From positions 1 to 14,336 of IMG/VR virus record IMGVR_UViG_2537561825_000009: DNA of 14,336 bases. The stretch is one strand, 5' to 3'. Below the pieces are notes generated by a model. That model did no database searches. It saw only the letters and a program-made list of their open reading frames with translations, and was not told where the DNA came from. The position numbers and the translations under genes are program-made. Source of the stretch: a virus. Its lineage: Duplodnaviria; Heunggongvirae; Uroviricota; Caudoviricetes. The first letter of the stretch is position 1. Each line of letters opens with the position of its first letter. Of this stretch, positions 1 through 14,336 are shown piece after piece.

Positions 1-1
1 G

Positions 2-781
2 ATTCAGGACGCCCTGAAATCCTGTGGCTTACCGGTGGGTGCCGTGCAGGCGATTGATAATCCTGACCGTGCGCTGGTCAGTGAAATGCTGCGTATGGAT
101 AAATACATCGACATGCTGATCCCGCGTGGTGGCGCTGGTTTGCATAAACTGTGCCGCGAACAGTCGACGATCCCGGTGATCACAGGTGGTATAGGCGTAT
201 GCCATATTTATGTTGATGAAAGTGTAGAGATTGCTGAAGCATTAAAAGTGATCGTCAACGCGAAAACTCAGCGTCCGAGCACATGTAATACGGTAGAAAC
301 GTTGCTGGTGAATAAAAACATCGCCGATAGCTTCCTGCCCGCATTAAGCAAACAAATGGAGGAAAGCGGCGTGGCATTACACGCAGATGCAGCTGCGCTG
401 GCGCAGTTGCAGACAGGCCCCGCGAAGGTGGTGGCTGTTAAAGCGGAAGAGTATGACGATGAGTTTCTGTCATTAGATTTGAACGTCAAAATCGTCAGTG
501 ATCTTGACGATGCCATCGCCCATATTCGTGAACACGGCACACAACACTCCGATGCGATCCTGACCCGCGATATGCGCAACGCCCAGCGTTTTGTTAACGA
601 AGTGGATTCGTCCGCTGTTTACGTTAACGCCTCTACGCGTTTTACCGACGGCGGCCAGTTTGGACTGGGTGCGGAAGTGGCGGTAAGCACACAAAAACTC
701 CACGCGCGTGGCCCAATGGGGCTGGAAGCACTGACCACTTACAAGTGGATCGGTATTGGTGATTACACCATTCGTGCGTAA
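2..781 (+). CDS. proA: gamma-glutamyl phosphate reductase, C-terminal part (5' end lies upstream of the window)
   Basis: The frame is open from the window start to a TAA at 779-781. The translation ends ...[23 protein letters not shown], which I recognise as the enterobacterial ProA C-terminus. thrW follows immediately, as in the E. coli proA-thrW arrangement. Confidence 0.9.
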
Positions 782-895
782 ATAAAACCGGGTGATGCAA
801 AAGTAGCCATTTGATTCACAAGGCCATTGACGCATCGCCCGGTTAGTTTTAACCTTGTCCACCGTGATTCACGTTCGTGAACATGTCCTTTCAGG

Positions 896-971
896 GCCGA
901 TATAGCTCAGTTGGTAGAGCAGCGCATTCGTAATGCGAAGGTCGTAGGTTCGACTCCTATTATCGGCACCA
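896..971 (+). tRNA. thrW: tRNA-Thr (anticodon CGU)
   Basis: 76-nt sequence GCCGATATAGCTCAGTTGGTAGAGCAGCGCATTCGTAATGCGAAGGTCGTAGGTTCGACTCCTATTATCGGCACCA. The acceptor stem GCCGATA/TATCGGC pairs, the D-arm is GCTC...GAGC, the T-arm is GGTTCGACTCC, the anticodon loop carries CGT, and the 3' end is CCA. Confidence 0.93.
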
Positions 972-985
972 TTAAAATCAATAAG
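926..985. other. putative prophage attachment site (attL) overlapping the 3' half of thrW; exact core not determinable from one junction
   Basis: The integrase stop codon (986-988, minus strand) lies 14 bp past the tRNA CCA end. P22-type integrases recombine within the 3' end of thrW (established knowledge). The attR copy is not in the window, so the core length is inferred. Confidence 0.3.
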
Positions 986-2149
986 TTACACATCATTAGT
1001 ACCTTCCTTATTTTTTGACTGGGACAAATTTGGGACCGGTGGGTTCAGGATCGAGTCTATTTGCCGTGCGTGTTCGGTAAGGTGATTAGGTGCAAGGTGA
1101 GCATATCGACGAACCATTTCGATAGACTCCCAGCCTCCCATTTCCTGTAACACTGACAACGGGACTCCGGCTTGAACCAGCCAACTTGCCCAGGTGTGTC
1201 TCAAGTCGTGAAATCTGAAATCATCAATACCAGCCCGTCTCAGCGCCGCTTTCCAGGCTGTGTTTGCGTCATACCGCATCTTCCTTACTGTTGGCGCTTT
1301 CGTTCCGTCTGGTTTGGTACAGCTTTCCTTGTACACAAATACCCAACGGTGATGATTCCCGATTTGTTTTTTCAATACGCGACATGCAGTATCATTCAGC
1401 GCAACGCCAATTGCGCGGTTTGATTTACTCTCTTCCGGGTTTATCCATGCCACCCGGCGCTGCATATCTATTTGTTGCCATTCAAGGTTGATGATGTTCG
1501 AGCGTCTTAAGCCTGTTGCCAGTGCAAATTCAACAACAGACTTTAATGGCTCCGGACATTCATCAATCAGCCTTTGTGCTTCATGGGGCTTCAGCCAGCG
1601 GATCCGTTTATTCTTTGGTTGAGGCACTTTAATAATTGGTGCCTTATCCAGCATTTTCCATTCACGCTCTGCGGCTCTTAGTAGGGCCTTTATAAATGAA
1701 AGATGCGTAGCCTTCGTTGCAACGGACGCTGGTTTTGGCGTGTATTCTGGAACAGGTTTCCCTTTTTTTCTGCATGCTTCTGCCCTGAGTTTCCAGTTTT
1801 CCTCATGACGCCGGTTCGTCATTTTCTGCATTGCTGAATAAATTTTTGATTCAGTAATGTCTCTTAGTTGCATTCCTGCGAAATGTTGAAGCCAGAATCC
1901 GATCCGGCTTTTGTCATCGTCCAGTGATTTTTTATGTGCTTTCTCTTCAAGCCACCTGACACACGCTTCCTCGAACGTTATATCAGGTATTTCACCAAGT
2001 TTGCTGACCCGCCATGCTTCAGCCTTTAGCTTGTCATGGAGTTCTGTCGCCTGCCTTTTGTCCTTTGTTCCAAGAGACTGTTTAAATCTTTTACCGTTCG
2101 GCAATGTGAAACTGGCGTACCATATTTCACCTCTGCGGAAGAGTGACAT
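986..2149 (-). CDS. int: tyrosine site-specific integrase, P22 Int-like (387 aa)
   Basis: N-terminus [41 protein letters not shown] and C-terminal catalytic region ...[42 protein letters not shown] (R..HxxR..Y signature) match the P22 integrase as I recall it. An SD (AGAGGAAAG) precedes the ATG, and the gene sits next to the tRNA. Confidence 0.95.
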
Positions 2150-2376
2150 TTTCTTTCCTCTGTTATGCCATCACCCGCGCTCACCTGGACAGTATGCAGC
2201 GGAGACTGAAGAGCCGCAATGCAGGCTTGTCGTGTTGTGAGGTAAGGAGATTTATTCTTAGTGGGATCTTTGCGTGTTGCCTGAAGACGCCCTGTGCGTA
2301 TCCAGTTAATGGCAGTCGGTCTGGATATCTTGAGAAAATGACAGGCCTCATCGAGTGTGAGGCTGTATGGCTCCAT
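2026..2376 (-). CDS. xis: excisionase, P22 Xis-like (116 aa), 3' end overlapping int
   Basis: Internal Met of ORF 2026..2460 begins [36 protein letters not shown], a helix-turn-helix excisionase-like N-terminus. The resulting length of 116 aa matches P22 Xis. Its ATG overlaps the TAA of the upstream ORF (TAATG at 2374-2378 on the minus strand). Confidence 0.75.
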
Positions 2377-2681
2377 TATTTCACCTCTTGCTGTGACATT
2401 GTTGAAAAATGGATACCAGCTCGTTGCTGCCAGACGATCCAACCGAGAGTCATATCCCATGCCATGTATTCGTTATTGCCGTTTTTTGCTCTCCGACGAT
2501 CTACTAAGTCACCGAAACGCTTTTCCATGAATAATTCATAAGCTTCGCGTTCATCTGGTTCTACTTCCAGAGATAGGAGTGCGATTTCATAAGCACGGCG
2601 CTCAATATCGTCTCGCACGTCAAGGCTGCTGATACGCTCTTTAATTTCTTTAATCAGTTCTTTGTCGGTAAAAGTGGTCAT
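2376..2681 (-). CDS. yfdT: hypothetical prophage early protein (101 aa), YfdT-like by size and position
   Basis: Acidic, helical-looking ORF (MTTFTDKELIKEIKERISSLDVRDDIERRAYEIALL...) translationally coupled to both neighbours. Its length and place in the operon fit the yfdPQRST pattern as I recall it. No motif recognised. Confidence 0.5.
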   Translation of the reverse strand: MTTFTDKELIKEIKERISSLDVRDDIERRAYEIALLSLEVEPDEREAYELFMEKRFGDLVDRRRAKNGNNEYMAWDMTLGWIVWQQRAGIHFSTMSQQEVK

Positions 2682-3043
2682 TATGCTCCAGCCTCCGGTG
2701 CTTTTGGCATTACTGCCCAGTGAGTGATATTGACGTTTTCAAGGTCCCCGACCTGAAATGTCCACTGCCATTCTCCGGTTTCTTTTTGTCCCCAGGTGTA
2801 CCAGAGAGAACGCCAGCCAATTAGCCAGCCTTCTCCGTTAGCATCGAATAACAAAACACTTTCATTTGCTGGTGGCAGTTCAGTTGACACTGGTATTACT
2901 TTGTTTTCCTGTGCTGCACATTTAGCTTCAAGCGCATCGAATTTACGCACCAGGTATTCAGCATCTGTTTCATTTACTTTCAGATCTCGCGGTACACATC
3001 TCCCACGAAGAAACCCTTCCATTTCGAAAACATTCATGCGCAT
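2681..3043 (-). CDS. yfdS: DUF551-like prophage protein (120 aa), YfdS-like
   Basis: Trp-rich C-terminal half (...GWLIGWRSLWYTWGQKETGEWQWTF...NITHWAVMPKAPEAG) resembles the DUF551 signature (...THWMPLPEPP). The ORF overlaps its upstream and downstream neighbours. Confidence 0.6.
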   Translation of the reverse strand: MRMNVFEMEGFLRGRCVPRDLKVNETDAEYLVRKFDALEAKCAAQENKVIPVSTELPPANESVLLFDANGEGWLIGWRSLWYTWGQKETGEWQWTFQVGDLENVNITHWAVMPKAPEAGA

Positions 3044-3570
3044 TTGCGTAACTCCGATAACTCGTTAAAGCGTTCCATAAACATCCCGTAGGCATGGCCC
3101 GGTGCCAGTGGAATCACGTTGAACATCTCTGTTGCCGGGATACCTTCCAGTACAGGCCAGAAAGAGCCATCATCAAGCCCGAGATCGCGGCGTTCGGTTG
3201 CCAGCATGATGAGATCGGCATATTTCACGGGCGTACTCATAACTGGGGGTAACCCGTATTTCTCACGGATTACGGCGTCTATTTTTTCTTCCATTTGTTT
3301 ATAGTCAGGAAGAAGGCGTTTCAGTGGTGCGGGAATGTCCTGGCAATACGCTTCTGTTGCATCATGCATTAACGCTTCAAAAGCAAATTCCTGCGGCACC
3401 AGCTGGCTGCAAAGAACCGCATGTTGGGCGACGCTGTAGAAGTGCGAAAGATGACCGGCAAAGCGACAGATATTTGAAAGGGAAACCGCGATATCGTTAA
3501 TATCGATGTCGTCTTTATTTATCCTGTCATAATAAAAATGCTTCCCGGAAAAAGTTTTAATAAATGACAT
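3034..3570 (-). CDS. yfdR: HD-domain phosphohydrolase / 5'-deoxynucleotidase-like (178 aa), YfdR-like
   Basis: His...HD metal-binding signature (FAGHLSHFYSVAQHAVL ... ALMHDATEAY). Start chosen at the ATG at 3570, which is preceded by GTGGAGAACAAA (an SD), rather than the GTG at 3597. The 178-aa length equals YfdR. Confidence 0.75.
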   Translation of the reverse strand: MSFIKTFSGKHFYYDRINKDDIDINDIAVSLSNICRFAGHLSHFYSVAQHAVLCSQLVPQEFAFEALMHDATEAYCQDIPAPLKRLLPDYKQMEEKIDAVIREKYGLPPVMSTPVKYADLIMLATERRDLGLDDGSFWPVLEGIPATEMFNVIPLAPGHAYGMFMERFNELSELRKCA

Positions 3571-3697
3571 TTTGTTCTCCACGTATATGCGCTGCACCGC
3601 GCTGAATTCTGGTAAAAAGAATCCCTCACCATCCGGCGATTATTGAGTAAATTACGTTTCCATAAATGCCCCCGCAGGGGCATTTGCAGTAATGAAA

Positions 3698-4522
3698 TCA
3701 GGCGGTGAAAGTACCAATAAAGGTTTCTACTTTGCTGTCCTTGAATTTCTCAACAAGCAGCTCACGAAATTCGTTAGCCATTTCTTCCTGCACCGCCTCC
3801 AGCTGAATAATGCGCAGAACCAGTACAGGACGATCGCCAGTGATAATACTGAGGCGTAATTTAAACGGACGTTCTTTCAGACCTTCAAACGGAACGCATT
3901 TAAATTCAAATGCCACTGGCATAATGTCTTTGGTCTTCGCTTCGACAGACTCCATCAGGGAGCGTTTGCCGCTGAAGTCATTATCTTCAAAATCAGCGGT
4001 CTGGTTTGCTTCAATCGTGATTTTACGGACAGCCGCAGCCGCTTTTGTTGCCTGAATAGCGTCACCATTAGCATCAAAGCCCACAAGATAGTCGGCCCAG
4101 TCTTCAATCCATTCTGCTAGTGACTTCTGGGAGTTACGCTCGCCGTTAACAGACAACAGAGCAGAGAACGGTGCTGTCTTTTTCAGTTTGAGTGTGGCGG
4201 TGTTATCTGCGTGACCTGGTTCATCAATAGTACCTAGGTTAAGCACACTGACGGCACGCATATTATCAGCATCGATAAAGCAGCGGGTGCCTTCATCTGC
4301 AAGATCTTTAGAATAACGGGTAAAATCATCGATGCTGGCAGTGGAAAGCGCACCACGGAAACGGAAGCGATTTAAATTAAATTTTTCCAGATCATGAATG
4401 CGGAAATTCTCAGGCAATGCCACAGCATCGGCACCAATCTTACTGATAATTTCATTAACACCCTGAGCAGAAATAAGGGCATGGATTTGATTAATTGCGG
4501 TTGCGTCTAAGTTCTGAGACAT
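3698..4522 (-). CDS. yfdQ: DUF2303-family prophage protein (274 aa), YfdQ-like
   Basis: Clean 274-aa ORF with an SD (GTGAGGA) 8 nt before the ATG. Size and neighbourhood (between the yfdP-like and HD genes) match YfdQ. Family assignment is from memory, not alignment. Confidence 0.7.
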
Positions 4523-4587
4523 AATAAGTCCTCACTATATAAAGATATTCAGTGATGAGATAAATAATCAGTTAATTAAAAACGATA

Positions 4588-4950
4588 TTAACGACCTGCT
4601 GCGCGGAGTTTTCCGTCAGGTTCACCGGCAAGAGTCAGCAACTGTCCCTGGTCTTCCTGCAGAATAGTCAGGCGACCACCGCGATTGACATACATCGGCG
4701 TTTCGGTGGTGTCTTCTTCGGAAATTTTCCCGCGGTTAGTCGGGCGAACATATGAGAGTTTGTGTTTGATTTTCACTCGGTTCTCATCAAACGGTTCGAT
4801 TTCTAGGTTGAGCGAGACCTTACCTTTGGTTTTCGTGTTCATCACACCGGAAGCGACTTCACTGAGAACTGCGCCGATTTTGGTTTCAAATACGCCGCCG
4901 TCCAGCTCCCCGATAAATGCCTGCACATCAGTACTGCGTTCGCTAGCCAT
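4588..4950 (-). CDS. yfdP: hypothetical prophage early protein (120 aa), YfdP-like; first gene of the leftward operon
   Basis: ATG at 4950 is preceded by AGGAGCAGCAAA (SD AGGAG, roughly 7 nt spacer). The longer 226-aa upstream extension in the ORF track runs through the GC-rich hairpin region and lacks a better start. Confidence 0.6.
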   Translation of the reverse strand: MASERSTDVQAFIGELDGGVFETKIGAVLSEVASGVMNTKTKGKVSLNLEIEPFDENRVKIKHKLSYVRPTNRGKISEEDTTETPMYVNRGGRLTILQEDQGQLLTLAGEPDGKLRAAGR

Positions 4951-4998
4951 TTTGCTGCTCCTCATCATATCGACCCTGCAAGGTCGGTTAGTTTCTCC

Positions 4999-5087
4999 AC
5001 AAAACAGAGAAGAACACCTGCGGTGACTGCCGCCCGGATGGATTGGGTTATGAGCCCGTCGTCCGGTGATGCTCTTCTCTGTTTTGT
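4999..5087. repeat. long perfect inverted repeat (15-bp arms ACAAAACAGAGAAGA / TCTTCTCTGTTTTGT, 59-nt spacer) in the GC-rich leader of the leftward operon
   Basis: Arms at 4999-5013 and 5073-5087 are exact reverse complements. The spacer contains further short stems (GCGG..CCGC, CCGG..CCGG). Confidence 0.8.
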
Positions 5088-5096
5088 AAAAAGGAC

Positions 5097-5131
5097 GGTA
5101 CCAGCCGGAAGCAAGGGTACAAGCTGGTACC
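5097..5131. promoter_or_regulatory. operator-like inverted repeat GGTACCAGC-N17-GCTGGTACC with an internal GGTACAAG half-site (candidate OL)
   Basis: Shares the GGTACAAG / CTTGTACC half-site with the palindrome in the cI-cro intergenic region. It lies upstream of the first leftward early gene. Confidence 0.35.
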
Positions 5132-5419
5132 GCCAAGACTACACACAGCATAAAGTTGTGGTGCCGGGTGCCTCCCGGTGCCTGGCGAAGGTTGCACACC
5201 AGGCGGGTGGGTATCCACAGAAGGTCGACTGTCAGCCTCAACCTTAACCCGCGTGCGCTGAGCCGCATTCACCACAACGCTAAGGATTCTCTCTGGTTGA
5301 AAATACTTAGCTGTTATGTGCCTGCTTTTAGCCACATCAGGCGAGGTGGACCTAGTTATTCCCCAACAACAAGGATTCGGTTAATCTGGATATCCCCAAC
5401 AACAATAAGAGTATTCAAT

Positions 5420-5935
5420 GTGATCGCTGAATTAACGGCAGCAATGACGGCTATTCGTGAAATCGCCCAGATTGCAAAACTAATGAACGAGGCAAAAACT
5501 CAAGCTGAAGTAAATGCGGCTATTGGTGAGCTGAACTCAAAGCTTGCGTCTATTCAGCGCGAATGCGTGTCTCTCGTTGAACTGCTGGGCTCTTATCAAG
5601 AAATAAATGCTTCTCTCAAAGCTAAAATTGCAGAATTCGAAAACTTTGAGGCTCAGACGGAAGGCTATATCCTTAACCAACTTGAGTCGGGTACTTTTGT
5701 ATACTCGAAGGAGGTAATCGTGAACGGTGACAGCATAACCATGCATCTTTGCCCAAAATGTTTTGGACAAAAGATAGTATCGATACTTCAACCATTCCCG
5801 GTTAGCGAAGATGAGCTTTTTCATAAAAGCAGGTGCCTCCACTGTGAAAATAAGTTTCTGATGAATAAAAATCCGGATTACGTATCGCCTCCATCCATTG
5901 AGGAGTTGGCCAGAAAACTTAACGGCAATCTGTAG
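5420..5935 (+). CDS. hypothetical coiled-coil / C4 zinc-ribbon protein (about 171 aa from the GTG at 5420, or 163 aa from the ATG at 5444); immunity-region moron
   Basis: N-terminal heptad-like segment (AIREIAQIAKLMNEAKTQAEVNAAIGELNSKLASIQRE...) and C-terminal CPKCFGQ...CLHCENKF (CxxC-N29-CxxC). It is on the strand opposite to both flanking operons and has its own intrinsic terminator. The start codon is uncertain because the SD is weak. Confidence 0.6.
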   Translation: MIAELTAAMTAIREIAQIAKLMNEAKTQAEVNAAIGELNSKLASIQRECVSLVELLGSYQEINASLKAKIAEFENFEAQTEGYILNQLESGTFVYSKEVIVNGDSITMHLCPKCFGQKIVSILQPFPVSEDELFHKSRCLHCENKFLMNKNPDYVSPPSIEELARKLNGNL

Positions 5936-5974
5936 ATTGCTACTGTTGTGGATATCCAGATTGTTAAAGAGCGA

Positions 5975-5998
5975 AGCGTCCTATAGGGCGCTTTTTTG
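5975..5998 (+). terminator. rho-independent terminator of the moron gene
   Basis: Stem AGCGTCC / GGGCGCT (7 bp, one G-U pair) with a TATA loop, followed by TTTTTT, 40 bp after the stop codon. The reverse strand has no T-tract. Confidence 0.7.
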
Positions 5999-6077
5999 TT
6001 GCTAACGAATCATCCTGGACTTCATATGCTCCAGGGGGCTACTTCGTGGGCGTCCTGCCTGTTTGTTGTTTCTCTTG

Positions 6078-6114
6078 GGTACATTATGTATCTCAAAGGT
6101 ACATTGTCAAGTAT
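6078..6114. promoter_or_regulatory. pair of operator-like GGTACAT sites (GGTACATTATGTATC and GGTACATTGTCAAGTAT) just beyond the cI terminator
   Basis: Same GGTACAT core as the site overlapping the cro SD and start codon (6903-6916). Confidence 0.3.
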
Positions 6115-6136
6115 AAAAAAACCTGCCGAAGCAGGT
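6114..6136 (-). terminator. rho-independent terminator of the cI transcript
   Basis: Hairpin ACCTGC-cgaa-GCAGGT (6121-6136) followed on the minus strand by a 7-nt U-tract (A-run 6114-6120 on plus), 14 bp after the cI stop. Confidence 0.65.
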
Positions 6137-6149
6137 TCATAAACATTGA

Positions 6150-6824
6150 TTAGGCTTTGATTTTGTATCTTCTTGGTTTTCCTGAGAAAATCACAGTTCC
6201 AATTATAGAGCAATTACCGTTGATCTTAATGTAAGGCTCAGGCCAGTTTGGGTTTAACGCTTTGAGATAACGCTGTGTCCCATCTTCTATCAACCTTTTG
6301 AAGGTGGTTTCACCTGTATCGTGCATCAATGCAATAACGTCGTCACCGTGGCAGGCAGGTACTTCAGGATCGACAAAAATCATGTCTCCCGGGCGGTACT
6401 CATCAATCATTGAATCACCTATCACCCGCAAGATATAAGTCATTTCCCCACAGGGTACAGGGCAGGGATACGTTTCTGCTGTGCTCAAATCAACCTCAGA
6501 ATATCCAACTTCTTTCCATGCTCCGGCCTGTACCCATGATATGACAGGGACTAATGTGATTTGTTTATTAGTGATTGAAACATCAGGTTTTTTTGTGATG
6601 TTCGTTGTCTGGTGTTCTTGATCGAGCCATCCGACAGGCAGGTCGAAACATTTTTCGATGTGTCGTGCCATGCTGTCACCGATATTTTTAGTAGCACCAT
6701 CTCCCATAAACCTGCTGGTCTGGGTTGGCTCGCGATCAATCATAGTGGCAAAGGAAGAATTCCCGCCAACACCATCTCTCAGTTTTCTGGCGTTAGACCG
6801 CCGGATGTCATGGATTGTTTTCAT
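6150..6824 (-). CDS. CI-type prophage repressor with C-terminal LexA-like S24 peptidase domain (224 aa)
   Basis: N-terminal HTH-like region, long linker, then an S24 autopeptidase core with GDSM (Ser nucleophile) and a downstream TFKRL lysine. Divergent from the cro-like gene across an operator-bearing intergenic region. Confidence 0.88.
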   Translation of the reverse strand: MKTIHDIRRSNARKLRDGVGGNSSFATMIDREPTQTSRFMGDGATKNIGDSMARHIEKCFDLPVGWLDQEHQTTNITKKPDVSITNKQITLVPVISWVQAGAWKEVGYSEVDLSTAETYPCPVPCGEMTYILRVIGDSMIDEYRPGDMIFVDPEVPACHGDDVIALMHDTGETTFKRLIEDGTQRYLKALNPNWPEPYIKINGNCSIIGTVIFSGKPRRYKIKA

Positions 6825-6839
6825 AACGAAATTAAAACC

Positions 6840-6860
6840 CTTGTACCGTTAAGGTACAAG
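6840..6860. promoter_or_regulatory. operator palindrome CTTGTACC-GTTAA-GGTACAAG in the cI/cro divergent promoter region (OR)
   Basis: Perfect 8-bp inverted arms located 16 bp upstream of the cI ATG and immediately upstream of the candidate pR -35 element. Confidence 0.6.
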
Positions 6861-6864
6861 TATC

Positions 6865-6892
6865 TTGAAGGTTCATTTCAATCATGTAATAT
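6865..6892 (+). promoter_or_regulatory. candidate pR promoter for the cro-like gene (-35 TTGAAG, 16-bp spacer, -10 TAATAT)
   Basis: Hexamers and spacing read from the sequence. The predicted transcript start is about 20 nt before the cro ATG and includes the GGAGG SD. Confidence 0.4.
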
Positions 6893-6914
6893 GTACGCCG
6901 GAGGTACATATTGT

Positions 6915-7115
6915 ATGAAAGCGTATTGGGACTCTTTAACCAAAGAACAGCAGGGCGAGTTGGCCGGAAAAGTTGGCTCAACACCTGGCTACTTACGGCT
7001 GGGTTTCAATGGCTATAAAAAAGCCAGTTTTGTGCTGGCTAAAAAACTTGAGCAATGCACGTCAGGTGCAATTACGAAATCTGACTTAAGACCGGATATC
7101 TATCCGAAAGATTAG
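6915..7115 (+). CDS. Cro-like HTH regulator, YdaS family (66 aa)
   Basis: ATG at 6915 is preceded by GGAGG with a 10-nt spacer. The protein ...LAKKLEQCTSGAITKSDLRPDIYPKD shares the C-terminal LRPDI motif I recall from YdaS-type Cro proteins. The 167-aa track ORF overlapping cI is a spurious extension. Confidence 0.8.
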   Translation: MKAYWDSLTKEQQGELAGKVGSTPGYLRLGFNGYKKASFVLAKKLEQCTSGAITKSDLRPDIYPKD

Positions 7116-7146
7116 CAGAACACTTTCAATTTTTAACCACAGAACG

Positions 7147-7716
7147 ATGAGGCTAATCGTGGGTAAGCATCACTGGAAAGTAGAAAAACAGCCTGAGTGG
7201 TACGTGAAAGCTGTCAGAAAAACTATCGCGGCGTTGCCGGGTGGTTACGCTGAAGCGGCTGACTGGCTCGATGTAACAGAAAACGCTTTATTCAACCGCC
7301 TTCGTGCAGATGGCGATCAGATTTTCCCGCTGGGATGGGCAATGGTTTTACAGCGTGCTGGTGGCACTCACTTCATTGCTGATGCTGTGGCGCAGTCTGC
7401 AAATGGCGTCTTTGTGTCTCTTCCTGACGTCGAAGATGTGGACAACGCCGATATTAACCAGCGTCTGCTGGAAGTCATTGAACAGATCGGCAGTTATTCA
7501 AAACAGATTCGTTCAGCAATCGAAGACGGTGTAGTGGAACCGCATGAGAAGACAGCAATTAACGACGAGCTGTATCTCTCAATTTCGAAGCTGCAGGAGC
7601 ATGCAGCACTTGTCTACAAAATTTTTTGCATTTCAGAAAGTAATGACGCCCGCGAGTGTGCAGCTCCGGGCGTCGTGGCGTCGATTGCTTCTGGTTGTGG
7701 AGAAACTAACGCATGA
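7147..7716 (+). CDS. CII-like / YdaT-like phage regulatory protein (189 aa; possible GTG start at 7159)
   Basis: Sits in the cII position directly after cro. Size and composition are consistent with the phage CII (CP76)/YdaT family. The GTG at 7159 has a closer GAGG SD than the ATG at 7147. Confidence 0.55.
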
Positions 7717-8051
7717 ACAGTTTAACAACACACTACCGTCGCTCGCAACTGATTGCGCTTCCTGTACCGGGTGGAAAAGCGAAGGTGGAATATTGCTATG
7801 CAGTGAATGTACCAGGTGACAGGGAAATTGTAACCCACAGCTTTGCAGAGTGGGCTGTGGGTGATTTCAACCGGCAGAAGGAGACAGTCCTTTGCGACAA
7901 GTTAACCGCTGGTTCAAAGATCACTACGGAGTGCCCGTCAGAGTCATTCGTTGGGAGCCGGAAACACAACGGGTTATCTACCTCCGCGAAGGTTATGAGC
8001 ATGAATGCTTCAGTCCGCTCGAACAGTTTCGTCGTAAATTCAGGGAAATAG
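7713..8051 (+). CDS. hypothetical protein (112 aa); possibly only the N-terminal half is genuine
   Basis: ATG overlaps the stop of the upstream gene (ATGA). The C-terminal third is Ser-rich and low-complexity, while another frame over the same DNA encodes a more protein-like sequence (see next feature). Confidence 0.4.
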
Positions 8052-8071
8052 AGGTCGGTCATGAGCACTAA
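7892..8071 (+). CDS. candidate small protein (59 aa, TTG start) translationally coupled to the replication gene
   Basis: Strong SD GAAGGAGA 8 nt before the TTG. Translation [59 protein letters not shown] looks like a folded domain. Its stop overlaps the start of the O-like gene by 11 nt. It falls just below the 60-aa ORF-track threshold. Confidence 0.35.
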
Positions 8072-9002
8072 ATTAACCGGCTATGTATGGGATGGTTGCG
8101 CTGCATCAGGCATGAAGTTATCCAGCGTGGCAATTATGGCCCGCCTGGCTGATTTCAGTAATGACGAAGGTGTGTGCTGGCCATCAATTGAAACCATTGC
8201 CCGTCAGATTGGCGCGGGGATGAGTACCGTCAGAACGGCTATCGCACGGCTGGAAGCAGAAGGCTGGTTAACGCGTAAGGCGCGTCGCCAGGGTAACCGC
8301 AATGCGTCGAATGTTTATCAGCTTAACGTTGCGAAGCTTCAGGCAGCGGCATTTTCTCAACTGTCAGATTCTGACCCGTCAAAATCTGACGCATCAAAAT
8401 CTGACCCGTCAAAATTTGATGCGTCGAAATCTGGCAAAAAAGCGGGTTTTCACCCGTCAGAATCTGGCGGGGATCCGTCAGTAAAATCAAAACATGATCC
8501 GTCAGATAAAAAACCTTCTCGTCCGGACGCTTCGCAACCGGACACGCAGACGGCTGAACAGGATTTTTTAACTCGCCATCCTGATGCGGTTGTATTCAGC
8601 CCTAAAAAGCGCCAGTGGGGGACGCAGGATGATTTGACCTGCGCACAGTGGCTCTGGAAAAAAATCATCGCCCTGTACGAGCAGGCTGCCGAATGTGACG
8701 GCGAGGGGGTTCGTCCCAAAGAACCGAACTGGACAGCCTGGGCAAACGAAATTCGCCTGATGTGTGTGCAGGATGGTCGTACTCACAAACAAATCTGCGA
8801 GATGTACAGCCGCGTCAGCCGCGATCCGTTCTGGTGCCGTAACGTGCTCAGCCCGTCGAAGCTGCGGGAAAAATGGGATGAGCTTTCCCTGCGCTTATCG
8901 CCGTCCGTAAGCACGTACACCGAAAAACGCGAAGACCCGTACTTCAAATCCAGTTACGACAACGTGGACTACAGCCAGATCCCGGCAGGATTCAGGGGGT
9001 GA
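8061..9002 (+). CDS. phage replication initiator, O-like (N-terminal winged-helix domain, repeat linker, C-terminal DnaT-like domain; 313 aa)
   Basis: N-terminus ...VAIMARLADFSNDEGVCWPSIETIARQIGAGMSTVRTAIARLEAEGWLTRK is a typical replication-initiator HTH. The central part is encoded by DNA iterons. The C-terminal Trp-rich region (...CAQWLWKKIIALYEQ...PNWTAWANEIRLM...) is typical of the DnaT-like domain. Confidence 0.8.
   Translation: MSTKLTGYVWDGCAASGMKLSSVAIMARLADFSNDEGVCWPSIETIARQIGAGMSTVRTAIARLEAEGWLTRKARRQGNRNASNVYQLNVAKLQAAAFSQLSDSDPSKSDASKSDPSKFDASKSGKKAGFHPSESGGDPSVKSKHDPSDKKPSRPDASQPDTQTAEQDFLTRHPDAVVFSPKKRQWGTQDDLTCAQWLWKKIIALYEQAAECDGEGVRPKEPNWTAWANEIRLMCVQDGRTHKQICEMYSRVSRDPFWCRNVLSPSKLREKWDELSLRLSPSVSTYTEKREDPYFKSSYDNVDYSQIPAGFRG
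8358..8515. repeat. origin-type iteron array inside the O-like gene (TCTGACCCGTCAAAA-like units)
   Basis: Four consecutive 15-bp units at 8370-8384, 8385-8399, 8400-8414 and 8415-8429, plus further degenerate CCGTCA-containing copies to about 8515. They encode the DPSKSDASKSDPSKFDASKS repeat in the protein. Confidence 0.7.
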
Positions 9003-9017
9003 TCATGAGTCTGTTAA

Positions 9018-9536
9018 ATGACGTTCAGAAATTCATTGAAGCCCAAAGATATTGTTGGTGTATGGACCGTATGTCACGGGCATATTGCACCGCCAGATAT
9101 TCCGGCAGGCTTCGTGGCTGTTTTCAACAGTGATGAGGCATCGTGGCATCTCGTTGAAGACCATCGAGGTAAAACGGTTTATGACGTGGCATCAGGGGAC
9201 GCGTTATTTATTTCTGAACTCGGTCCGTTACCGGAAAATGTTACTTGGTTGTCACCGGAAGGGGAATATCAGAAGTGGAACGGCACAGCCTGGGTGAAGG
9301 ATACGGAAGCAGAAAAACTGTTCCGGATCCGGGAGGCGGAAGAAACAAAAAACAGCCTGATGCAGGTAGCCAGTGAGCATATTGCGCCGCTTCAGGATGC
9401 TGCAGATCTGGAAATCGCAACGGAGGAAGAAACCTCGTTGCTTGAAGCCTGGAAGAAGTATCGGGTGTTGCTGAATCGTGTTGATACATCAACTGCACCT
9501 GATATTGAGTGGCCTGCAATCCCTGTTATGGAATAA
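9018..9536 (+). CDS. tail fibre assembly protein (Tfa) homologue, probably a 5'-truncated remnant (172 aa)
   Basis: From [35 protein letters not shown]... to ...[17 protein letters not shown] is the conserved Tfa body as I recall it. The first ~21 residues ([21 protein letters not shown]) are unrelated, there is no good SD, and no tail fibre gene lies upstream. Confidence 0.65.
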
Positions 9537-10089
9537 TCGTTCCTGTTGTAGCCACAGTCACGTCATATACAAGAACTTGCCGGCCTAAGAAGAGTTCGTG
9601 CTGATTTTGAATATAAAATCAGCATTACAACGCCCGAAATACCCAGGCTAAAAAATTTCTTAGGACATTATCAGCTGGCGATACATAGATGGACTGGATA
9701 CTAGACCGATAGAGGCGCTGTATGCGTCATCTTGTCGTGATGCTGGCGAAGTTGTGCGAACGAAGTATTAACTTTTGCAGCCTAGCTGATTCAATTGATG
9801 CAGCCACACTAACGGGGCGCTTTTTTCCATGTAATGGTTGTAGAAGATGTTACTGAGAGGGATTAAATGAAACAGCAAATACGTCATATGTTAGAGCATG
9901 TTGTGGTTGACTGTTGAACACACCTATCACAAATGTGCTTCTTTAGAAAGAGAATTTACATAAGCAAATTGCAACATGTTTTTTTTCTGAGTAAATAGTA
10001 TGATTAACAATGCTGACTACCATTTTCTTACATGGCGAACCTAATTAAGAATTAAACGCGAGTAGATTACCCGCTTTAGAGGAGGATTT

Positions 10090-11031
10090 ATGTCCGGTTA
10101 CTGTTTTTACTCTCAGGATGCATTAGCCTTAGCCCAGGCAGCTGGTGTTGATGTAATAATAAACGAGTATGCTGAGAAGAATAAAAAACAGACATATGTT
10201 CTTTGTCGTCCCCTGTCAAATGAGGATGTAAAGTATGATTATGACCAAGCGATAGCGGTATTTTCGGCTGGTATAAAACCTTTTTTTATGAATTTAGGAG
10301 ATGACGTCGAACTCTTTGAAGAGTATCAAGAGGATTTTCTAGAGGATGTATCATATTTAGCAGAGAAATTTAAGTATCGTAGTAAAATTGGAAGAAAAAA
10401 GACATGGCAAGATTTATTTGAAGTACTTTCTGTTGGTGATGCCGATTTCAGTAAGCTGGAGGTTGAAACTAAAGAAAGTAGAATAATTGATTTGCTAATC
10501 TCGCTTATTGTGGGAAGTATTAACGATACTTCAAGAATTAATCTTGAAGCAAGTAATTTATTAGATACAATAAAATCAAAGATTATTTTATTTGATACTG
10601 ATCAAACAAAATTCGTTTTCCAAAGTGGAATTGGAAAAAAGACTGTAATACAAGGCTTGGCTGGTTCGGGGAAAACAGAACTCCTTTTACATAAATTAAA
10701 AGAGGTTTATTTAAGGAACCCTGATGCTAAAATTGCATTTACTTGTTTTAATAAAATACTTGCATCTACAATGAGAACTAGGATACCAGAGTTTTTTGAT
10801 TTTATGCGAGTGGAAAAGCAAATTGAATGGGGTACGAAACTTTTTTGTTTTAACTCTTGGGGTTTGACTAAAGATCCCTTTTCTGGGATGTATAGATATA
10901 TATGTCATTATTACGAAATTCCATTCGGTGGTTTTGGCAACGGAGATTTCGATGCTCTTTGCAAAAAAGCCATTTTGGATATAAAAAAAGTGGGCGGTCT
11001 GATGAAAAAGCTCTCGATTATGTGTTTATAG
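10090..11031 (+). CDS. UvrD-like SF1 helicase, N-terminal segment: unknown ~185-aa domain plus Walker A and motif Ia; frame ends 42 nt after an A7 tract
   Basis: Strong SD AGAGGAGGA before the ATG. Walker A GLAGSGKT at residues 189-196 and Ia-like FTCFNKILAS. GC content is clearly lower than the flanking prophage. Confidence 0.75.
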   Translation: MSGYCFYSQDALALAQAAGVDVIINEYAEKNKKQTYVLCRPLSNEDVKYDYDQAIAVFSAGIKPFFMNLGDDVELFEEYQEDFLEDVSYLAEKFKYRSKIGRKKTWQDLFEVLSVGDADFSKLEVETKESRIIDLLISLIVGSINDTSRINLEASNLLDTIKSKIILFDTDQTKFVFQSGIGKKTVIQGLAGSGKTELLLHKLKEVYLRNPDAKIAFTCFNKILASTMRTRIPEFFDFMRVEKQIEWGTKLFCFNSWGLTKDPFSGMYRYICHYYEIPFGGFGNGDFDALCKKAILDIKKVGGLMKKLSIMCL

Positions 11032-12077
11032 ATGAAAGCCAAGATTTTCCACAAAGCTTCATTGAACTATGTGAAATGGTTACATCTAAAAAACTATATG
11101 TAGCGGGCGATGTATTTCAAAATATATTTATGCCGATTAATGATAACGTGAATCGAGCAGATATAGTTCTTAAAAAATGTTATCGCACAGATCCAAAGAA
11201 CTTAATGTTTTCTCATGCACTAGGAATGGGACTTTATGAGAAACCGGTGCTTCGGTGGTTGAAAGAGACTGAGTGGGATTCTTGTGGATATAAATATAAT
11301 AAGGTTGGGGATAGAGTACATTTATCTAGGGATCCGTTAAGACGCTTTGAAGATATTCCAAAAAATCATAAAAGTACGGCTATTCATTTACTAAAAGAAG
11401 TGGATAATGGTCCTGATAAAATAGTTGAAATTATTAAGGATATTCAGGCCCGCAATCCTACTTTAGAGCAAGGAGATATAGCAGTCATTTTCCTTGATGC
11501 TAGTGGTTATATTTATGATTATATTCAATCACTAAAATCAAAAGTCAAGTTGCAGCTTGGTTGGGACTCTAATATTTCACATGAGACAAAATCAAAACAA
11601 GATGGGAAGCTTTTTATTTCCAATATAAACAATGCAAAAGGGCTTGAGTTCCCATTTGTTATTTGTTTTGCTATGAAATTAGTAAAGAGAGCAAACTTTC
11701 GAAATGCTCTGTATACTATGATGGCTAGATCTTTTTTAGAAAGCCATTTAGTTTTAAATAATGATAATGAAAATCCGGCAATGCCTACTATTATTGAAGG
11801 TTTAGATTTTCTCAATAAAAATGATTATATGGATGTAAGACTTCCGTCGGATGAGGAAATAAACAATCAAAAGGATTATATTATTTTGGATGAGTCTACC
11901 TCTATTAATCAAATGGTTAGAAAATATTGTGAAGATAAAAAATCCACACCTCGCTTAATAGCAAAAGTTACTCACACTGTAGAAACTATAATAGCAGGTC
12001 TTGATGATGATGATGTCGATGATGACTATATAAATAGATTGATTGAAATAGAATATATAAGGAATAAAAAGTTATGA
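10902..12077 (+). CDS. UvrD-like SF1 helicase, C-terminal segment (motifs II-VI) in the alternate frame; the real join is at the A7 tract 10983-10989
   Basis: Motifs DYVFIDESQDF (II), LYVAGDVFQNIF (III), CYRTD (IV), ISNINNAKGLEFPFVI (V, UvrD_C-like) and ALYTMMARSF (VI), then an acidic tail DDDDVDDD. Adding one A to the A7 run fuses the two segments into a single 662-aa protein. Confidence 0.75.
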   Translation: MSLLRNSIRWFWQRRFRCSLQKSHFGYKKSGRSDEKALDYVFIDESQDFPQSFIELCEMVTSKKLYVAGDVFQNIFMPINDNVNRADIVLKKCYRTDPKNLMFSHALGMGLYEKPVLRWLKETEWDSCGYKYNKVGDRVHLSRDPLRRFEDIPKNHKSTAIHLLKEVDNGPDKIVEIIKDIQARNPTLEQGDIAVIFLDASGYIYDYIQSLKSKVKLQLGWDSNISHETKSKQDGKLFISNINNAKGLEFPFVICFAMKLVKRANFRNALYTMMARSFLESHLVLNNDNENPAMPTIIEGLDFLNKNDYMDVRLPSDEEINNQKDYIILDESTSINQMVRKYCEDKKSTPRLIAKVTHTVETIIAGLDDDDVDDDYINRLIEIEYIRNKKL

Positions 12078-12712
12078 GTTTTTATTTCTTTAATAATGTA
12101 CCTACAGTGTACCTTGAAAAGTTCTGCGCTGTAAGAGATGCATTTTCCAATCTGGAAAATCTTCTTATTGCTGCGGAAATTATAAATACATGTCATGACT
12201 GTTGGAATAAAGAAACAAATGATTTCGATTTGCTAATAAGTACTGGTACTCATAAGCGAATTCTGGTGAGGAAACCGGATGGTTTTTTTTCTATGAATTT
12301 ACCATTTCAAGTAATTGAGTATGAAAGCAATATCTGTTTTAACTATGATGCCTATGGGCTTCCTGTTAATGCAGAGTTTATTTCTCGATGCAGGAATGTA
12401 ATAAATACTTGCAGTAATGGCGCTTTTTCTCAGGAGGCAATTGCTCTTGAATTGTGTGATAACTTTGATCGAGATATTCAAAGTGCTATAAATTATGCTG
12501 ATGCAATTTGTTCATTGTTGTTAGTTGATCATGGGTATTTTAGGTTTGATGATGATCCTAAAAATGCGAAGGATAAAGTGCATCCAAGATATCACTTTGA
12601 TTTTTTCTTCAATAATTCTACTAATGTAAAGATAGGCTGTAATACTCGTTTGGATGAATCATTTTTTTTAGAACTATTTGATGTAAATAAAGACCGCCCC
12701 TATCTGGCTTGA
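12074..12712 (+). CDS. hypothetical cysteine-rich protein (212 aa), translationally coupled to the helicase
   Basis: ATG overlaps the helicase stop (ATGA at 12074-12077). Nine Cys residues including a CHDC pair. Same low GC as the helicase. No recognisable family. Confidence 0.7.
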   Translation: MSFYFFNNVPTVYLEKFCAVRDAFSNLENLLIAAEIINTCHDCWNKETNDFDLLISTGTHKRILVRKPDGFFSMNLPFQVIEYESNICFNYDAYGLPVNAEFISRCRNVINTCSNGAFSQEAIALELCDNFDRDIQSAINYADAICSLLLVDHGYFRFDDDPKNAKDKVHPRYHFDFFFNNSTNVKIGCNTRLDESFFLELFDVNKDRPYLA

Positions 12713-13162: not shown

Positions 13163-14031
13163 TTATGAAAGACCGTAGTATTTATTTAGCGCGGTGGTAG
13201 CGGCTTGAGTTGCTACAGCTATTCCTATACCCAAAATACCATGGGCTGCTTTACTTGCAATATTTGCCAGCCATTTACTAACAGATTGACCGTATTCATC
13301 ACGTCTGTTAGCTATCGGGCCATCTTCACCAATAGCAATTTCTAAATCGTTTACATCAGATTTAGGAAACCCCTGAGCTAAGAGATATTCTTTTAATGAT
13401 TCAATGTTGTTTTTTACGATATGGTTATTCACAGAAAATGAGTTTTCATTTCCGAAGTTTATAACAGTATTGTCTCCAAAAATTGAGTTATGAAACAATG
13501 AAGACGTGTCGATATTTTTAAGTTTTTCTGTCATGTTTTTCTCATCTGATATTTCAGAAACTTGATCAGAAAGTTCAAGTATAAAATCAAGTAGCCGTGA
13601 TCTGACCTGAGTTAAGATGGAAGTGAAGTTATGTAGCGCGATCTCTTTATAACAGCATGTTAACTCATAGCCTCTATCGATACCTTTGCAATATTTAACT
13701 AATGCATAATCTAAAGGAATTGGCTGCTGCAGGGTATGGCTATCACCAGCATTGGTTACTAGGTCTTCGATTTGACTGATTGAAAGTCTAACTTTACTGG
13801 TTGTAGCATCTTCATAGTCATCTTCACTGAGATAGCCAATCGGTAAAGGAAAAGCTCTATATAGGCGAATGCCATTGTTCAGATCTGCAAGAATTCTTGT
13901 GCCAACAATTCTATAATCGGGAAGGGAAACTGAATCAGAATAACCGTTTATCTCATGATTTACCCATGCAGCAAGCTCCTTTTTCCCGATAGAGAAAAGA
14001 AGGATCTTTGTTTTTATGAGAGCATCTGTTG
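13163..14031 (-). pseudogene. 3' fragment (at least 289 codons) of a gene for a protein with a C-terminal glycine-zipper TM helix; 5' end interrupted by the IS66-family element
   Basis: Minus-strand frame is open without any stop from the IS end (14031) to the TAA at 13163. In-frame ATG/GTG/TTG are absent for 165 codons upstream of the Met at 13534. C-terminus is ...WLANIASKAAHGILGIGIAVATQAATTALNKYYGLS. Confidence 0.6.
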
Positions 14032-14336
14032 GTAAGCGGCTCGTCAGAACCGTATTGATATTTACTGAGAGCTCAGATCAACTTTCCAGGGCAACAGATC
14101 GCGTACCCGGTTTGCCGGCCAGTCCTGGATATGTTCAATGACGTAGCGCAGCCACTTTTCTGGCTCCACATTGTTCAGACGGCATGTGCCGATCAGCGAG
14201 TACAACACCGCCGCATGTTCACCACCGCTGTCGGAACCCGCGAACATCCACTTTTTCCGGCCTACGGCCACTCCCCGTAAGGCGTTCTCTGCGATGTTGT
14301 TGTCGATTTCCACCCAGCCATTACTGCAGTACACGT
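14032..14336 (-). mobile_element. IS66-family insertion sequence, terminal ~300 bp (rest beyond window end)
   Basis: Terminus begins GTAAGCGGCTCGTC at 14032, the GTAAGCG end typical of IS66-family inverted repeats, 30 bp outside the transposase stop. Confidence 0.7.
14062..14336 (-). CDS. IS66-family transposase (TnpC), C-terminal part; 5' end beyond window
   Basis: ...VEIDNNIAENALRGVAVGRKKWMFAGSDSGGEHAAVLYSLIGTCRLNNVEPEKWLRYVIEHIQDWPANRVRDLLPWKV matches the conserved IS66 TnpC C-terminal region as I recall it. Confidence 0.85.
   Translation of the reverse strand, partial: VYCSNGWVEIDNNIAENALRGVAVGRKKWMFAGSDSGGEHAAVLYSLIGTCRLNNVEPEKWLRYVIEHIQDWPANRVRDLLPWKVDLSSQ

Follow-up and report, generated by a model that had tools for sequence, protein, structure and literature searches.

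The reading frame at 10090 to 11031 and the ORF downstream of it are two halves of one helicase gene, a frameshifted pseudogene in the 14,336-nt stretch of DNA analysed here (the window). Sequence comparison indicates that the break is probably a genuine slippage deletion, from a run of eight A residues (A8) to one of seven (A7), at an ordinary mutational hot spot, inactivating the helicase module of a decaying prophage island.

The helicase gene, its partner and their setting

A Shine-Dalgarno sequence, AGGAGG, was read from the sequence at 10080 to 10085 on the plus strand, 4 nt before the helicase ATG. ORF A (10090 to 11031, plus strand) encodes 313 amino acids, comprising helicase residues 1 to 300 and then 13 residues read out of frame before a TAG stop. 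Its N-terminal part is a domain of unknown function, followed by Walker A (GLAGSGKT) and motifs I-Ia. The C-terminal end reads ALCKKAILDIKKVGGLMKKLSIMCL before the stop codon. The rest of the helicase, residues 301 to 662, is encoded at 10989 to 12077 on the plus strand in the -1 frame. This second frame is open from 10896 to 12077 and includes motif II (FIDESQDF) and the UvrD_C_2 domain. The conserved motifs after the run therefore do sit in the other frame, as a reading of the sequence alone had proposed.

The A7 run occupies 10983 to 10989 on the plus strand. The local sequence is GGATAT-AAAAAAA-GTGGGCGG, with GCCATTTTGGATAT before the run and GTGGGCGGTC after it. In the upstream frame the codons across the run are ATA AAA AAA GTG, with the heptamer A_AAA_AAA in phase at 10983 to 10989. 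Insertion of one A gave a 662-amino-acid protein reading DIKKSGRSDEKALDYVFIDESQDF across the junction, and the single rebuilt protein was as the sequence-only reading had written it. The window was aligned over 14.3 kb to six near-identical complete genomes and the sole indel was one A in the A7 run. The other ten homopolymer runs of at least 7 bases in the window were the same as in the six genomes. The break is thus placed at the run by direct genome comparison, beyond reading-frame inference alone, and the run is the site of a 1-bp deletion relative to the A8 of intact alleles. The earlier suggestion that the frame switches exactly at the A7 run was borne out by both the sequence and the alignment.

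Against NCBIfam NF053713 (STM2767 family DEAD/DEAH box helicase; curated cut-off 550 bits), the A8-restored protein scored 903.7 bits and covered profile positions 3 to 661 of 665. By annotation coordinates and sequence comparison it is identical to WP_000017384.1. Pfam matches to AAA_19, UvrD-helicase and UvrD_C_2 describe an SF1 UvrD-like core. The single ORF of the STM2767 family was not found in the window, where A7 splits the gene and the second frame ends at 12077. The window copy is a frameshifted allele of an STM2767-family helicase.

The partner gene (12074 to 12712, plus strand) is intact and encodes a 212-amino-acid STM2766 family helicase-associated protein (NF053714, 202.9 bits, cut-off 70). 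Its start overlaps the helicase stop (ATGA). STM2767/STM2766 orthologues have the same two-gene order with an overlapping stop and start; unlike them, the window pair has a frame-broken helicase member. PADLOC-DB v2 gave no significant full-length system-specific match for the helicase. It returned a partial match to the generic 'Helicase' profile PDLC03002 (3.6e-32) and weak GajB and NERD+UvrD matches on the ATPase core. The partner protein had no match in PADLOC-DB v2 and has no known fold relative. Searches of the literature for STM2767/STM2766, the protein accessions and the NCBIfam names gave nothing or incidental mentions, with no published function for the module. The module had no match in deposited phage genomes, and the only plasmid match was one Salmonella homologue at 82% identity. 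The helicase/STM2766 module is widespread and uncharacterised, occurs in defence-island contexts, and is of more interest than the frameshift itself.

A degraded lambdoid prophage, inserted next to proA and tRNA-Thr, ends in an island of 32% GC (9537 to approximately 14031). The helicase pair is located in this island, after a tail-fibre-assembly remnant. Window positions 1 to 9536 hold the proA 3' end, tRNA-Thr (896 to 971), a tyrosine integrase gene (986 to 2104, minus strand), yfdT-yfdP, the ymfK/ymfT/ymfL early genes and the tail-fibre-assembly remnant. Together these genes are a strongly reduced lambdoid prophage. Another gene in this region, at 4965 to 5275, is annotated as frameshifted in all relatives. 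An AbiTii-domain gene (13163 to 14029, minus strand) lies 3' of the helicase pair and lacks its first 18 codons, which an IS66-family insertion removed. The end of the ISCro1 (IS66-family) transposase gene, at 14062 to 14336 on the minus strand, runs off the window, and its junction with AbiTii is at approximately 14031. RefSeq annotates the AbiTii remnant as two pieces, yet the ORF runs unbroken from 14029 to 13163. SMEK-domain genes and AbiTii neighbour the helicase and the island is a probable defence island.

Distribution of the A8 and A7 alleles

The gene is present in 32 complete RefSeq E. coli genomes, and over 10900 to 11080 each of them is one base longer than the window. A8 was present in every complete-genome locus that was read directly, including the allele of strain C4, which has 87 differences in the operon. 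The helicase is annotated in the complete genomes as an intact single CDS of 1989 nt (WP_000017384.1). A8 is the ancestral and prevalent state.

Allele counts were obtained by exact-product look-ups in a collection of 15 billion proteins, with contigs as the units. The A8 product was found on 1106 contigs (360 + 462 + 232 + 52) and the A7 product on about 31 (20 + 6 + 3-5; ~2.8%), from many independent assemblies. The A9 product was found on one contig, and the A6 and A10 products were absent from the collection. The exact 313-amino-acid product of the window type was present on 20 to at least 24 contigs, drawn from NCBI and Logan assemblies that belong to different projects. Its carriers included sister assemblies, unrelated NCBI assemblies and Logan re-assemblies of several SRA runs. 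The loci encoding this product that were fetched all had A7 (9/9).

At least four haplotypes of the operon carry A7, and for two of them there are A8 relatives that differ in the run alone. The first is the window type, whose A8 relatives are the six complete genomes. The second is the D10 type, represented by L014, which matches strain D10 over 3.6 kb except at the run, where D10 has A8. The third is the AR436 type, with A7 on 6 contigs. The fourth (P0021, L048-L051) was seen in DNA, with 15-16 operon differences, and its A8 version was absent from the complete genomes and the protein collection. A8 and A7 coexist within the window-type, D10-type and AR436-type haplotypes. Two further assignments were rejected. 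L015-L017 were considered as an independent A7 background with intact AbiTii; their sequence matches the window exactly and stops at the IS66 junction. AR436 was considered as the A8 sibling of the L048-L051 haplotype, from which it has at least 38 differences.

The A7 carriers had zero additional changes in the downstream frame and the partner gene; the deletion events are therefore recent. The earlier reading had offered a recent inactivating deletion as one possible cause of the break. The 32 complete genomes and 1106 contigs with A8, together with A7 carriers free of further decay, lend support to it.

The same reading had also raised a sequencing or assembly error, in which the isolate would really be A8 and the draft assembly would have lost one A. 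Homopolymers are classic sites of indel error and A8 is found in all complete genomes. Over 14.3 kb the window differs from the six complete genomes, which belong to one ETEC lineage, by the single A and four substitutions, at 1039, 1591, 7003 and 8707. Three of these four private substitutions are changes to G beside G runs and they look error-like. At 8707, the only private site covered by other A7 loci, those loci have the common base. The changes to G suggest that the substitutions may be read or assembly errors in the draft contig. An error at the A run itself is nevertheless quite unlikely and was largely excluded, as A7 is found on the ~31 contigs from unrelated assemblies and read sets and on four haplotypes. 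Identical A7 alleles were present in the sister assemblies, in the unrelated NCBI assemblies and in the Logan re-assemblies. The agreement of the window's other ten runs with the references also counts against an error, as do the fetched A7 loci, which had no other homopolymer differences. A7 appears to be a real, recurrent allele shared by many assemblies, beyond a one-off sequencing error.

Orthologues and the two-frame layout

Orthologues were surveyed in one-genome-per-species contigs and 28 loci encoding helicase relatives were found in Proteobacteria and Firmicutes. An STM2766-like gene was directly downstream in 24 of the 28. The junction was crossed in one frame at 24 of the 26 loci whose match reaches it. 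Two genuinely separate orthologous genes, which would have spoken against a broken single gene, were looked for here and were not the arrangement found. The comparison of run lengths among orthologues, as proposed in the sequence-only reading, gave A8 in the E. coli complete genomes and no such tract at this position in Salmonella, Klebsiella, Pantoea, Xenorhabdus or the distant orthologues. Salmonella has ADINNSGR at the position of the tract. Klebsiella, Pantoea and Xenorhabdus have ATA AAT AAT AG(T/C), encoding I-N-N-S. Distant orthologues have no run and have unrelated sequence in a variable linker before motif II. The A8 tract is specific to E. coli, where it differs from the sister genera by two AAT-to-AAA changes (Asn to Lys).

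The helicase gene of Xenorhabdus hominickii (L036) is N-terminally truncated and, in the segment 3380 to 3480 of that locus, is frame-broken at another poly-A. This run lies approximately 8 codons downstream of the E. coli tract and has A8, whereas A9 keeps the frame. It is an independent accident of the same kind in the same Lys-rich, AT-rich linker.

The orthologues bear on whether the two fragments could be made separately and assemble into an active enzyme, with re-initiation at GTG 11022 or ATG 11076. Gene callers report a downstream ORF of 333-351 amino acids, and GTG 11022 lies just before the ORF A stop, which would permit termination-reinitiation. No SD-like sequence was seen by eye before either restart codon. 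The product from ATG 11076 lacks motif II, the break falls inside RecA-like domain 1A, and an arrangement of two conserved genes was seen in no orthologue among the 28 loci. A functional split helicase is extremely unlikely on these grounds.

Programmed recoding would retain both products in a set ratio, with a -1 frameshift on A_AAA_AAA or transcriptional slippage yielding 313- and 662-amino-acid proteins. The slippery heptamer is exactly in phase and a -1 shift reproduces the wild-type protein. Lysine AAA/AAG sites rank with the most shift-prone ones in E. coli (PMC4066793). The two-frame layout is, however, a minority allele that is absent from orthologues, and no stimulatory element was found. 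On folding, the RNA of 10990 to 11070 was not unusually structured (z = -0.28 versus shuffles), and no SD-like stimulator was seen upstream by eye, where there is only a GGA triplet. The dnaX and IS-element -1 frameshift sites (A_AAA_AAG with an upstream SD and/or downstream structure) share with the window an in-phase lysine heptamer and a -1 frame in which the protein continues. Unlike at those sites, no stimulators were found in the window, the layout is an unconserved minority one, and the 'frameshift product' is the ancestral protein. Heptamers without a stimulator shift at 2.1-10 times the 0.055% background, and in E. coli genes AAAAAAA is rarer than expected in every frame (Sharma et al. 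2014, PMC4066793). Efficient transcriptional slippage needs approximately 9 or more A or T residues (PMC5009743) and the run has 7 nt. With no stimulator, an unconserved split and an A7 run that is too short, any residual full-length rescue in the A7 allele should be at most ~0.5%. Programmed recoding is not supported and is judged very unlikely.

Control runs and interpretation of the deletion

Other runs in the same operon were used as controls. Two T8 runs lie inside the partner gene, at 12283 to 12290 and 12662 to 12669. At 12283, T8 was found on at least 1000 contigs, T7 on 14 and T9 on 5. The complete genome of S1-NGR-02-A has T7 at this position with an annotated frameshift. At 12662, T9 was found on 2 contigs and the T7 product was indistinguishable from contig-end partials. 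At the T7 run at 10281, T6 was found on 3 contigs. The control runs show similar +/-1 alleles, and therefore the A8 run is, like its 7-8-nt neighbours in the operon, a generic hot spot for slippage. The A7 fraction (~2.8%) slightly exceeded the figure for the T8 control (at most 1.9%), and deletions at the A run outnumbered insertions (at least 4 events versus 1). Selection or a switch role would also fit the A7 fraction and the deletion excess.

The third possibility raised in the sequence-only reading was a slippage-prone on/off switch for a potentially toxic gene. Homopolymer phase variation is found in restriction-modification and surface genes of Haemophilus, Neisseria, Campylobacter and Helicobacter. 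A phase-variable contingency switch of this type would maintain the A8/A7 tract so that reversible slippage toggles a costly or toxic helicase module in E. coli. The window tract shares with such loci its intragenic position, ON and OFF lengths in close relatives and a probable defence-type accessory gene. Near-identical haplotypes include both ON and OFF alleles, the change has recurred at least four times, and the OFF alleles are without secondary decay. The tract arose in E. coli through the two AAT-to-AAA changes and the gene lies in a probable defence island beside AbiTii and SMEK-domain genes. Unlike contingency loci, the tract is only 8 nt, is unconserved, with no tract in orthologues, and is no more variable than the controls, the other 7-8-nt runs having +/-1 alleles of the same order. 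Approximately 97% of alleles are ON. Such a length is also on the low side for frequent switching in E. coli that is proficient in mismatch repair. Neither toxicity of the protein nor reversal of the change has evidence behind it. The mutational hot spot proposed earlier was thus upheld, while its use as a switch is unlikely. There is likewise a slim chance that the E. coli-specific A8 is a low-frequency switch for a possibly costly defence-type module at prophage ends, with the recurrent A7 'off' state keeping a trace of full-length protein through -1 slippage.

The reading preferred here is the slippage deletion. One A would have been lost by strand slippage at the homopolymer during DNA replication. 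The missing base shifts the frame after Lys300, and translation meets a stop 13 codons on, cutting Walker A off from motifs II-VI. The fragments are expected to be non-functional because the break lies between motifs Ia and II in RecA-like domain 1A and no SD-like sequence was seen by eye before the candidate restart codons. We infer a loss of helicase function in the A7 allele; the helicase, and hence the two-gene helicase/STM2766 module, is most likely inactive in the A7 strain. At most a trace of full-length protein might arise by spontaneous -1 slippage on A_AAA_AAA. The deletion has arisen separately on several E. coli haplotypes, as a run of 8 nt is an ordinary hot spot for mutation, and A7 probably persists because the decaying prophage island carries the module as dispensable cargo. 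Loss of the module may be tolerated or favoured as accessory cargo; an IS element has likewise disrupted the neighbouring AbiTii gene.

In accessory genes of E. coli, frameshifted pseudogene alleles at mononucleotide runs, which are hot spots of replication slippage, have the same features. These are a single-base length change in an A/T run, an intact ancestral allele in the majority, repeated occurrence on different backgrounds and comparable +/-1 alleles at runs nearby. Nothing essential differs in the window, the extra detail being that A7 forms an in-phase slippery heptamer. The A7 break is an ordinary kind of event and no new mechanism is involved. Exact-product look-ups combined with control runs can separate a real recurrent homopolymer mutation from an error or a switch without the use of reads.

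Two PHROGs families, phrog_16361 and phrog_13375 (profiles of 313 and 372 positions), correspond to the helicase halves. As these profiles match the two halves, the A7 allele has been propagated into the reference database as two families. The halves should become one frameshifted pseudogene in annotation, and the PHROGs split is an artefact of the A7 allele.
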